Made by a program: the position numbers and the translations under genes. This document shows, piece by piece, positions 53,880 to 57,314 of a stretch of DNA of 64,000 nt; within the stretch, counting starts at the first letter, position 1, and every line of letters starts with the position of its first letter. The notes under the pieces were generated by a model that had not been told where the DNA came from, made no database searches, and saw only the letters and a program-made list of their open reading frames with translations. Source of the DNA: Planctomycetota bacterium. Lineage in GTDB: Bacteria > Planctomycetota > B15-G4 > SIAN01. Where the stretch lies: contig JANNXA010000055.1 of the NCBI GenBank assembly GCA_031409275.1, positions 96,001-160,000 on the forward strand, read 5' to 3'.

Positions 53880-54560
53880 GTGTCGACGCCGCCGTCCGCC
53901 GCTCCGAATCCCGCGCCGTCCCGGCGACCGATCGTGATCGGCCTCCTCGGCGGCATCGGCAGCGGCAAGAGCAGCGTGGCGCGGATGCTCGCGGCGTTGG
54001 GAGCCGAGTGGCTCGACGCCGACGCCATCGCCCACTCCGTGCTCGACGAGCCGGAGATCGTCGCGGCCGTTTGCAAGCGGCACGGCGCCGCCACGCTGCT
54101 GCCCGGAACTCCGGCGCGCGTCGATCGCGCCGCGCTCGGCCGTCGGGTCTTTGACGACCGCGACGCACTGCGCCACCTCGAAGCGCTGCTCCACCCCCGC
54201 GTGCTGGAACTACTCGAGCAGCGACTCGACTCGTTGCGCCAGCGCGGCGAAGTACCGGCGATCCTCCTCGACGTCCCGCTCCTGCTCGAAACGGGGCAAC
54301 TCGCGGCGCGCTGCGACCTGCTGCTCTTCGTCGACAGTCCCGCCGAGGAGCGTCTGCAGCGCGTCGTCGAGCGTCGCCGCTGGTCCCCCGCGGAACTCGC
54401 GCGGCGCGAGGCGCTGCAGCTGCCGCTCGCGCAGAAGCGCGCCGCCGCGGACCAGGTTCTGGTGAACGACGGCAACGAGGCAGGCCTTTCAGAGCGCGTC
54501 CGAGCGTGGCTGTCGGGCGCGGGCGGATTCGAGGGGCTGCCGCGCCGCAAGAGGGGCTGA
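53880..54560 (+). CDS. coaE: dephospho-CoA kinase
   Basis: IGLLGGIGSGKS, DAD, LEALLHP.V, DVPLLLE, AD.VL.ND. Confidence 0.95.
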   Translation: MSTPPSAAPNPAPSRRPIVIGLLGGIGSGKSSVARMLAALGAEWLDADAIAHSVLDEPEIVAAVCKRHGAATLLPGTPARVDRAALGRRVFDDRDALRHLEALLHPRVLELLEQRLDSLRQRGEVPAILLDVPLLLETGQLAARCDLLLFVDSPAEERLQRVVERRRWSPAELARREALQLPLAQKRAAADQVLVNDGNEAGLSERVRAWLSGAGGFEGLPRRKRG

Positions 54561-54696
54561 ACCGCGCGCGATCGTGACATCCGCGGCCCTCGTCAACGAG
54601 CGAGGCACGGCTACCATCGCTCGCGGACGTCCGGCCCAACTTCGGCCCAAGTCCCAACCCGTGTCCCGAATCGATCTCCCCGGATGGAGCTTGTCG

Positions 54697-55443
54697 ATGC
54701 AACGAAGTCACGCGCTCAAGCTCGGCGCGATCCTGCTTGGATCGTGCCTTGCCCTGATGCCGGAGTCGTTTGGCTACGGCTGAGGTCCTGGATGCGGCTC
54801 CGGAGGAGCTGGCGGTTCGTCGGGTGGCGCGAGCGGAGGCGGAGGACCCTCGGCCGGATCAGGAGGCGCTGGCGTGCGCTCCGGCGGAGGCGGCTTTGGC
54901 CGACGCAAGCCCTCCTCGACGGGCAGCGGAGATGGCGGCGGATCGGGCGATCTCTTCACGCCGGGGCAGGACGGCAACCTGTCGTGGAACGGGACGCAGC
55001 CGATCGCCAACAAGCCGATCCTCGTCTACGTCTTCGATGGCCACATCTACGACGGCAGCGTCTTCGACTTCAGCAAGCGGATCGAGACCGAACTGCTGAA
55101 AGACCCGCAGGTCATCAAGGAAGCACGCGACTTCGTGTGCGAGAAGGTCTGCGTCGGAGATCACGAGTTCCTGCGCAAGGTGAAGGGGCGCGAAGCTCTC
55201 ACCGCGTATCTCACCGCGAACCTCGCCAAGCCCGAACAGCGCAAAGTGCAGCTCTTCTTCCTCGATTCGACCGGACAGTGGATCTCGACCTTCAACGACC
55301 CGAAGGCGATCAAGGAAGGCGCGCCAGCGCTGTTGCGTGAGATGCGCAAGGCGAAGGAAGAAAACGCCAAGCGACTCGCCGCTCTCGCGGCGAAGGCCGC
55401 CGCACCGGCCGCCGGAAAAGGGACGGGCGCCAAGAAAGAGTGA
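54697..55443 (+). CDS. candidate exported selenoprotein (in-frame TGA at codon 29): signal peptide, YG-U-GPG-C, Gly/Ser linker, thioredoxin-like fold
   Basis: ORFs 54574-54783 and 54874-55443 are in the same frame with only one TGA between them; GGAG lies 7 nt before ATG 54697; hairpin after the TGA; KPILVYVF, FVCEKV and LFFLDSTGQ Trx-like strands. Confidence 0.65.
54795..54811 (+). promoter_or_regulatory. candidate bacterial SECIS element
   Basis: CGGCTCC-GGA-GGAGCTG 7-bp stem with a G-initiated loop, after an 11-nt spacer from the TGA. Confidence 0.55.
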
Positions 55444-55506: not shown

Positions 55507-56517
55507 CTAGCCCCCGCCCTTGCGTGGTGGCGATTTCGGGTCGTCGGCCGGCAGCTTGTCGAGCTGCTTCTGCGCATCGGCTGCGACTGGCAGTCCCTTC
55601 ATCCCGCGCACGACGTTCGCGAGCCGCTTCCTCGCGGCGGCGCGATCGCCCGCGCGCGCGACTTCGAGCGCTTCCTCGATCTGCCCCTCCGCCTCCTCGA
55701 TCAACGCGGCCTGCAACTCCCCGATCCACTGCGCCAACGCGGCGGTCTTGAGCGGCCGCGGCAGCGACGCGTCCTTGATCCCCTTCTGCTCGGCGATCAG
55801 GAGCTTCCCAAGCTCGCGATGAACGAAGCTGCCGCCACGCTTCTCGCGTTGATCGATCAATGCGCGGACCGAAGCGAGCAGCGCCGCGTACTCGCCGTAG
55901 CTGAAGCTTGGGTGTGCCCGATCCTTGTTGGCGTGAGCCAGTTCCTCCTCCAAGCGCTCGATCGTGAGCTGATGGCCCTCCGCTCGCGCGCGCTCCAAGC
56001 CATCGGCGCCGACGAAGACATGCAGCGGATTCCAATACTCGCGCTGCGCGAACTCGTCGCGAACCTTCACGTAGCTCGCGCGATGCTCGTCGCACGCGCA
56101 GTCGAAGAGGTCGCACCAGTCGATGGAAGCGTTCGCCGCGACGCGAGGCTTCGATGGATGTGCCTTGCCATCGAATGCCGCGAGCAGCACCACTTTCTGC
56201 GACAAAGCGCCGAATCCAGGCTTCGAGTAGACCGCGCTGCTCATCGACTTGAAGCCCGAGCTTTGATCGTCGCTGAGCACGGCGAGCACCGGCACGTTGC
56301 GCCGCGTCGCCTCATCGAGCGCGCCGTACCAATCGCCCGTCCAACGCACCTCGTCGGCCTTGCGCTCGCGCGGCACCTCGAACTCGAGTCGGCGCCGCGC
56401 GCTCTGGGTCAGCGGGCTGATGAAGTCGTCGATACTGCGGCTCGGACACGGCGACGCGAGCGGGGCGAACGCGAGAGTGGCGGCAGCGAAGCCCCACCGG
56501 AGTCGATTGACGGCCAT
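55507..56517 (-). CDS. exported thioredoxin-like fold protein without CxxC
   Basis: Signal-like N-terminus; W...WYGALDEA.RRNVPVL, cis-Pro-like NPLHVFVGADG; Cys cluster CDLFDCACDEH. Confidence 0.65.
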   Translation of the reverse strand: MAVNRLRWGFAAATLAFAPLASPCPSRSIDDFISPLTQSARRRLEFEVPRERKADEVRWTGDWYGALDEATRRNVPVLAVLSDDQSSGFKSMSSAVYSKPGFGALSQKVVLLAAFDGKAHPSKPRVAANASIDWCDLFDCACDEHRASYVKVRDEFAQREYWNPLHVFVGADGLERARAEGHQLTIERLEEELAHANKDRAHPSFSYGEYAALLASVRALIDQREKRGGSFVHRELGKLLIAEQKGIKDASLPRPLKTAALAQWIGELQAALIEEAEGQIEEALEVARAGDRAAARKRLANVVRGMKGLPVAADAQKQLDKLPADDPKSPPRKGGG

Positions 56518-56555
56518 GGCAGCTCCAGTCGACGGCGAGTTCGGATGGACACTAG

Positions 56556-57314
56556 CTAGTGGCGCCGGCCCGGCGCGCGCTCCAACGCCGCCTCCGCACG
56601 GCGCGCGTCCGCAGCCCGTTGCTCGGAACGCACCTGCTCGAGCTGCTCTGCGACTTTTTCGCGCATCGCCACGTCGGTTGCGCCGCCTCGCAGTGCGCGC
56701 TCGCCCCCCGGGGCGCCGCCGCCCTCGTCCTCGCCGCTGCTCGAACCACCGGTCTTGCCTGGCGCGCCTACCGCCGCCCGCGCCGCCGCTGCGCCGGGCT
56801 TGAGCGGGCCGCGCGCTCCGCTGCGAGCGGCCGCCGCCGCCGCCGCTGCAGCCTCGCCCGCCCGCTCCCACGCCTTGTCGCCCTCCTCGGCAGCGCGCAG
56901 ACCGGCAACGACCCCCGCCAGGCTCGCCATCACTCCGGAGTCGCTCGAACGCTCGATCGCCAACTCCGCGAGCGCCGCACGGGCAAGTCGCAGGTCGGCC
57001 GCGATCGCGCCCCACTGAGCGCGCGCGTCGGCGACGGCTTTGGTGGTCGGCCGTCTCGGCGGCTCGCCAGGACGCGGCCGAACGCGCGCTCGCTCGAATC
57101 GCGTGCGCGCGAAATCGAAGGTCGCGGCCCGCGCCAGCGAACGATCGGGCGCGTCGCAAAGCGGCGCGAATCGATCCGCGGCCTGATCCCATTCGCCCGC
57201 CTCGGCCAGCGCCAACGCCTGCTCGAAGGCGTTCGAAAGCGACCCGGCGACTTCCTCACCCGGAGTTCCCGATCGCATCAGGAACACGCACAGCGACGTC
57301 AGCAGCGACCTCAT
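56556..57314 (-). CDS. TPR-containing protein (BatC-like)
   Basis: FEQALAL..AGEWDQA..RF, ATFDFA helical repeat, low-complexity tail; overlaps the upstream VWA gene. Confidence 0.6.
   Translation of the reverse strand: MRSLLTSLCVFLMRSGTPGEEVAGSLSNAFEQALALAEAGEWDQAADRFAPLCDAPDRSLARAATFDFARTRFERARVRPRPGEPPRRPTTKAVADARAQWGAIAADLRLARAALAELAIERSSDSGVMASLAGVVAGLRAAEEGDKAWERAGEAAAAAAAAARSGARGPLKPGAAAARAAVGAPGKTGGSSSGEDEGGGAPGGERALRGGATDVAMREKVAEQLEQVRSEQRAADARRAEAALERAPGRRH

Follow-up and report, generated by a model that had tools for sequence, protein, structure and literature searches.

An in-frame TGA followed by a likely ordinary bacterial SECIS hairpin in a predicted exported selenoprotein of a Planctomycetota bacterium

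The window analyzed here is a stretch of 64,000 nucleotides from a Planctomycetota bacterium (assembly GCA_031409275.1, contig JANNXA010000055.1, positions 96,001 to 160,000), and positions are those of the window unless another contig is named. On the plus strand, a gene can be read from 54697 to 55443, with its final stop TGA at 55441-55443. Codon 29 is an in-frame TGA (54781..54783), and the gene encodes 248 amino acids when this codon is read as selenocysteine (Sec, U). The stop-free homolog P0050 aligns continuously across the position of this TGA, which supports the reading of the gene as a whole. A Shine-Dalgarno-like GGAG was found at 54686..54689, 7 nt 5' of the ATG, and a similar purine-rich run also stands ahead of the ATG in the 22 homologs described below. 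The first 26 codons (54697..54774) encode a predicted signal peptide with a hydrophobic core. By the -3/-1 rule of general knowledge, cleavage would probably occur after S-F-G and give Y-G-U-G-P-G-C as the mature start. Sec would then be mature residue 3 here, and by the same rule residue 2 or 3 across the family.

The TGA is followed by a Gly/Ser-rich linker of about 57 codons (54784..54954), which is expected to be disordered, and by a thioredoxin-fold domain without CxxC (54955..55440). Within this domain, a conserved C-E-K-x-C motif (Cys148, Cys152) lies on a strand and precedes a long helix. Cys33 (54793..54795), four residues past U, is a possible partner of Sec, and a Cys is found 1, 4, or 5 residues past U in 19 of the 22 homologs. 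Directly upstream on the plus strand is coaE, for dephospho-CoA kinase (53880-54560), which is kept in five close loci; the gene neighbors are otherwise mixed (36 of 95 called neighbors scanned). The convergent neighbor on the minus strand (55507-56559) matches Thioredoxin_7 weakly (E 0.0025) and starts with a signal-like peptide; close relatives carry a gene of about this size at a similar position.

At the RNA level, an 11-nt spacer (54784..54794) separates the UGA from a 7-bp hairpin at 54795..54811 with a predicted energy of -9.3 kcal/mol. Its arms are CGGCUCC (54795-54801) and GGAGCUG (54805-54811), and the GGA loop (54802-54804) lies 18 nt from the UGA. This geometry between 54781 and 54811 had been reported in a preliminary description of the locus and was confirmed, as was the small apical loop with an early G, the G being first in the GGA triloop. 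The likeness to the Escherichia coli fdhF element claimed there also held, since the hairpin spans +12..+28, as does the fdhF upper stem when folded here.

The folding of this copy taken by itself gave a weaker picture. In the 33-mer, the 7-bp hairpin with the GGA loop is the minimum free energy (MFE) structure (-10.7 kcal/mol), and 82 of 200 shuffles folded as well (z -0.14), which is at chance level. The pairing probability of the conserved stem was at most 0.11 in all five longer windows of this copy, where an overlapping fold wins. MFE and ensemble folding of windows of 60-110 nt both preferred a competing 5-bp hairpin with a GGC loop, 27 nt from the UGA (54806..54818), which shares nucleotides with the 3' arm of the conserved one. 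The hairpin from this one sequence alone is not beyond chance. An Rfam search over 54500-55000 returned no match up to E 5. A promoter and terminator scan gave nothing informative, and no terminator-like site was found at the hairpin.

The genome holds the machinery for Sec. The genes selA, selB, and selD and the tRNA-Sec (selC) were all found over curated cut-offs, and the SelD gene has an in-frame TGA of its own. TGA is also the main stop codon, ending 3481 of 4170 called genes. A genome-wide reassignment of UGA was considered and rejected on these grounds, TGA being the main stop and a tRNA-Sec being present. Among ten other homolog-bearing genomes searched, selA was over the cut-off in nine. 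In the tenth, the distant planctomycete G102 (90% complete, 410 contigs), selB and selD were matched, with no selA over the cut-off and no tRNA-Sec match. The homolog in G102 (L122:2227-5223, contig C294) adjoins a selB-type gene in divergent orientation, and the contig ends inside selD. Another selB, together with selD, is found on this contig at a distance of 11 kb; both arrangements were seen in this one genome.

Homologs were collected from 8 genomes of the family, 42 genomes of the class, and one metagenome scan, and 31 loci were examined. Nine loci were dropped: five duplicates or near-duplicates (L046, L047, and L052-L054), a locus cut before the UGA (L051), a false hit (L063), and the stop-free paralogs L027 and L028. 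This left 22 distinct genes with an intact N-terminus, the present gene included. All 22 have TGA at this place and never TAA or TAG. Each has an ATG 24-28 codons ahead of the TGA, a hydrophobic stretch, and a Gly codon adjoining the TGA on its 5' side. The frame is kept across the UGA, and a Gly-rich linker of 47-65 codons stays open beyond it. Conservation of TGA alone is weak evidence, because TGA is the stop of most called genes in this genome. In a search of the phylum, 15 of 401 genomes had a match, and four of the five more distant matches examined have the same TGA design.

The hairpin was then measured against a fixed test, which asked for a stem of at least 6 bp and a loop of 3-5 nt with G in one of the first two places, 16-37 nt from the UGA. 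The test was passed by 18 of the 22 UGA-bearing homologs. Under synonymous-codon resampling, 3.9 of 22 were expected to pass with genome codon usage and 3.5 with linker usage, and elsewhere in these linkers 8 of 98 windows passed. In the four homologs that failed, the loop is of 6 nt, the stem has a mismatch, or several of the pairs are G-U. The hairpin is thus conserved among TGA-bearing homologs, and the preliminary description had named its absence there as a ground for giving up the reading. In 16 of the 22 homologs the hairpin is the dominant fold, and this copy is among the six in which it is not. The loops of the family are GGU in seven, GGA in four, GGC in four, and others in seven, in a sample where the picker required an early G.

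Covariation was found as well. In an ungapped, UGA-anchored alignment of nine sequences, both partners vary at six of ten pairs. The covariation score was 0.458, reached by none of 500 shuffles, and slid controls gave at most 0.228; with 12 sequences, three of them in shifted rows, the score was 0.345 and one of 500 shuffles reached it. These numbers are not probabilities, as the genes are related, and the nine sequences had been picked for the 18-nt spacer, with the structure derived from two of them. The amino acids under the stem vary between homologs while the pairing stays. Compensatory changes across homologs, which had been proposed as a check, were therefore seen. The stem is encoded almost free of protein constraint because the arm is Gly/Ser-rich, and an in-frame Gly codon usually forms the loop.

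The codons after the UGA had also been read as a sign of an RNA-level constraint, as they end in A or T in a window dominated by C/G endings. This claim stood in part. Six of the first ten codons after the UGA end in A or T (P=0.0017 against genome usage), and the excess is reduced when the comparison is made with the Gly-rich linkers of the same family (P=0.057). The next 21 linker codons of this gene contain nine such endings. Across the 22 homologs, 97 of 259 codons end in A or T within the first 12 codons, and the corresponding figure for the more distal linker is 213 of 934. The bias is partly an effect of the Gly-rich linker and only partly one of RNA constraint.

The conserved hairpin is the better candidate for the insertion signal in this copy, and the strongest competitor is the hairpin at 54806-54818. 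In that reading the UGA still encodes Sec, the 7-bp hairpin is a degenerate remnant in this copy, and the GGC-loop hairpin is the SECIS. The folding preference in the 60-110 nt windows speaks for it, and in the GGC-loop hairpin, too, a G stands early in the loop, at a distance of 16-37 nt from the UGA. However, it has only five pairs, some of them G-U, and it is the hairpin 18 nt from the UGA that is common to the close relatives and covaries. A hairpin of low predicted stability may still function, because the proven E. coli fdhF stem folded on its own reaches -4.2 kcal/mol, less than the -9.3 kcal/mol of the present one. The GGC-loop hairpin is therefore regarded as an improbable SECIS.

The hairpin can be compared with the general bacterial element. 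The consensus in the Fig. 2A legend of PMC13188914 gives a loop of 3-9 nt, a stem of 4-16 bp, an early G (often G[G/U]), a distance of 16-37 nt from UGA to loop, and an MFE of at most -7.5 kcal/mol. The present hairpin, with its 3-nt GGA loop, 7 bp, 18 nt, and -9.3 kcal/mol, falls within that published description on all four counts, and it likewise lies within the coding region just past the UGA. On these points of the legend no difference was found, and the sole oddity is the predicted competing fold in this copy. The minimal SECIS of E. coli fdhF shares with it the 17-nt upper stem-loop, the 11 nt from the UGA, and a G at the G23 position. By the description of fdhF given in PMC8659212, the bulged U17 is missing from the present stem and U24 is replaced by A, and the closest ortholog of this gene does have U24. 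Here the 7-bp stem is unbulged with a triloop, and no lower stem is predicted confidently.

The preliminary description had proposed that the hairpin defines a minimal, lineage-specific SECIS that could serve as a search pattern for other hidden selenoproteins. In its full form, this reading holds that an 11-nt spacer, an unbulged stem, and a GGN triloop make up a class of their own, read by an adapted SelB. The missing bulged U would suit it, as would the GGA or GGC loops in 8 of the 22 homologs, and the 87.4% of canonical elements that PMC13326102 reports for BSepDB leaves room for variants. Other elements of the genome were surveyed at 34 further candidate Sec codons, which were chosen by protein motif before folding, by hand and without HMM verification. 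The general hairpin test was passed by 25 of these 34 candidates, and the rate at ordinary TGA stops was 9.2% (284 of 3089). Such hairpins are thus not equally common after true TGA stops; equal frequency there had been named as a result that would count against the reading. The narrow pattern with a 10-12 nt spacer fared poorly on the same candidates, finding 6 of the 34 and 1 of 19 of familiar types, and it missed SelD. Among 616 coding-like TGAs, the narrow pattern picked out 15 and a G[G/U]-loop rule 38; the 35-item candidate list includes 7 of the former and 26 of the latter.

The 10-12 nt spacer is not general, because stems start anywhere from +12 to +25 in this genome and from +9 to +21 in the family. 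Most loops of the genome hold GU (GGUC, GUU, AGUU), whereas this copy has GGA and is a weak example; in its closest ortholog the stem extends to 10 bp and the loop is GGU. Elsewhere in this genome the elements show longer spacers and GU loops, and a single SelB must read them all. Since the published bacterial consensus already describes this hairpin, it is not a new SECIS class; it is likely an ordinary bacterial SECIS and a new instance of it. The lineage-specific class is quite improbable, and its use as a search pattern was not supported.

The candidate sites in this genome (G000) make up a large putative selenoproteome and include SelD, two peroxiredoxin types, MsrA, four ResA-like proteins, and DsbD, together with deiodinase-like, Rdx, glutaredoxin-like, FG-GAP, and several unnamed proteins, all picked by motif. 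A likely Sec codon at C34 64177 on the minus strand lies in an FG-GAP-like gene, a paralog of that at C14 295797, and was recovered by the hairpin rules. Three further loci, L042 (C50 93369, minus), L043 (C7 114593), and L044 (C18 86342), have a TGA soon after a signal-like peptide together with a G-loop hairpin. At two other in-frame TGAs (C45 21671, plus; C27 736, minus), the flanks suggest Trp by motifs of general knowledge, and these may be broken genes or assembly errors.

Could the UGA at 54781 instead be a true stop? It would then end a 28-aa peptide, the downstream gene would begin at GTG 54874, and the hairpin would be a by-product of Ser-Gly-Gly codons. Gene callers annotate the locus in this way (P0002, 189 aa). 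Ser-Gly-Gly codons form such stems easily, with a null expectation of up to 0.5 for some sequences, and a hairpin of this kind follows 9% of true stops. The hairpins of the family are nevertheless four- to five-fold above the synonymous null. The internal start is not conserved, being Ile or Ala in L022 and L024, and the unbroken frame across the UGA in every one of the 22 homologs also counts against a stop. Stop-free homologs are single open reading frames with signal peptide, linker, and domain. Termination at this UGA is very unlikely, and its reading as Sec is retained.

The fold of the downstream domain was predicted with good confidence. The alignment-based model of the domain reached a pLDDT of 86.6, and a full-length single-sequence model reached 43.7 and is uninformative on the linker. 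The best Foldseek matches were DsbH, DsbD-gamma, and ERp19/AGR2 (E about 5e-4), and the Atlas Thioredoxin_2/_7 clusters scored 0.92 for the domain. The thioredoxin fold is shared with these three proteins at a TM-score of about 0.4-0.5 of the query and an identity of 14-20%. The present domain differs from them in the lack of CxxC, an inserted helix, and the long C-terminal helix. Neither CxxC nor UxxC was found after the first strand in the alignment or the model, and the C-E-K-x-C strand is conserved in the domain alignment.

No Pfam or NCBIfam family was matched by the protein, and the best values among 21 family members were E 0.028-0.036. None of the entries in Table 1 of PMC13188914, which covers 119 bacterial selenoprotein families, describes this family, and a literature search found no description of it; the BSepDB supplement or the groundwater candidates cited in PMC13188914 may hold it. 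The host family is apparently uncatalogued and of unusual layout. Like the thioredoxin-fold selenoproteins of that Table 1, it combines Sec with a thioredoxin-like fold, often has a nearby Cys, and is hidden by a truncated annotation. Unlike them, it has its Sec not in a UxxC or CxxU that starts the active-site helix but about 58 residues upstream of the fold on a Gly-rich arm, the fold lacks CxxC, and the stop-free homologs carry His rather than Cys.

The stop-free relatives were obtained by a profile search of 1.84 billion representatives, which gave 56 matches, six of them close and full-length without a stop. In the Sec column of these six, four have His, one has Cys one column off, and one has neither, and there is no clean Sec/Cys pair. 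The four His homologs are single-member proteins without DNA context. P0050 aligns ungapped with the present protein from the signal peptide onward, F-F-H-G-P against Y-G-U-G-P, and this alignment with His in the U column supports read-through. Selenoprotein cataloguing relies on Sec/Cys searches, as set out in section 6 of PMC13188914, and such searches would miss this family because its stop-free homologs carry His. PMC4807772 shows that other families are already known to include planctomycete selenoproteins and to have Gly as a non-Cys counterpart of Sec.

One further alternative, a seleno-lipoprotein in which Sec replaces the lipidated Cys and the Gly/Ser stretch serves as a tether, would fit the Gly before U in all 22 homologs and the typical lipoprotein anatomy of a tether followed by a domain, but it was rejected as extremely unlikely, since none of the 22 fits a PROSITE-style lipobox as generally known with U taken as Cys, Pro and charged residues stand just before U, A-x-A type sites lie one or two residues upstream, and the His-bearing homologs cannot be lipidated there.

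Taken together, the hairpin is likely a standard SECIS and the UGA at 54781 a Sec codon within a 248-aa protein that is predicted to be exported. On the parts of this reading, Sec is very probably inserted at the UGA, and, with slightly less assurance, this hairpin is probably the signal for its insertion. In the proposed mechanism, SelB would bind the G-containing loop 18 nt from the UGA and bring in Sec-tRNA. Signal peptidase I would then leave the mature start given above, and the protein would carry a Sec tip on a flexible arm of about 57 residues joined to the thioredoxin fold. The fold, having lost its own CxxC, may serve as a docking body.

Two roles were considered for the Sec tip. N-terminal metal-binding motifs are known in the form of the ATCUN motif (X-X-His) and the Ni-SOD hook. 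The ligand residue here is likewise at predicted mature position 1-3, with U and C four residues apart, and one homolog starts with C-N-H after its predicted cleavage site. The differences are that Sec stands in place of His and that the position and the partner Cys vary. By analogy with these motifs, the tip might bind a soft metal (Cu, Ni, or similar), a role to which we give somewhat less than an even chance. A redox swinging arm that works with the nearby Cys or the cysteines of the domain is possible but less probable. The metal role is favored because His, and not Cys, replaces Sec in the stop-free relatives. No metal-handling genes were found among the 36 of 95 called neighbors scanned, and the neighbors do not decide the job of the tip.

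A tandem pair of the same design lies on the minus strand elsewhere in the genome (L041:2594 and L041:1539, at C14 124093 and 123038). Each member has a signal peptide, G-U-[C/G], a Gly-rich stretch, and a thioredoxin-like domain without CxxC. Homologs of the pair occur in 27 of 42 class genomes, with TGA at the same place in 30 of 31 genes examined and a conserved AGU-loop hairpin in many. The pair matched no NCBIfam family, and among 90 proteins there was no clear stop-free match bearing a signal peptide. A comparison of this domain with that of the present gene by hhalign gave a probability of 0.9%, and only a shared design is claimed. As a tentative and rather doubtful proposal, at least two families may form a planctomycete class of exported proteins. 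These would carry Sec at mature residue 2-3 on a long Gly-rich arm, interchangeable with His and not Cys, as a selenium version of an N-terminal Cu/Ni site delivered to partners by a CxxC-less thioredoxin body.

As an RNA element the hairpin is ordinary, and the SECIS model gains nothing from it. The family provides a set of natural SECIS elements that are almost free of protein constraint, which is useful for testing the rules of spacing and loop. A gene annotated as a truncated hypothetical protein likely encodes a predicted exported selenoprotein. If the replacement of Sec by His holds, a class is missing from selenoprotein catalogues that rest on Sec/Cys pairs, and if the metal role is true, Sec may serve as a metal ligand at the N-terminus.
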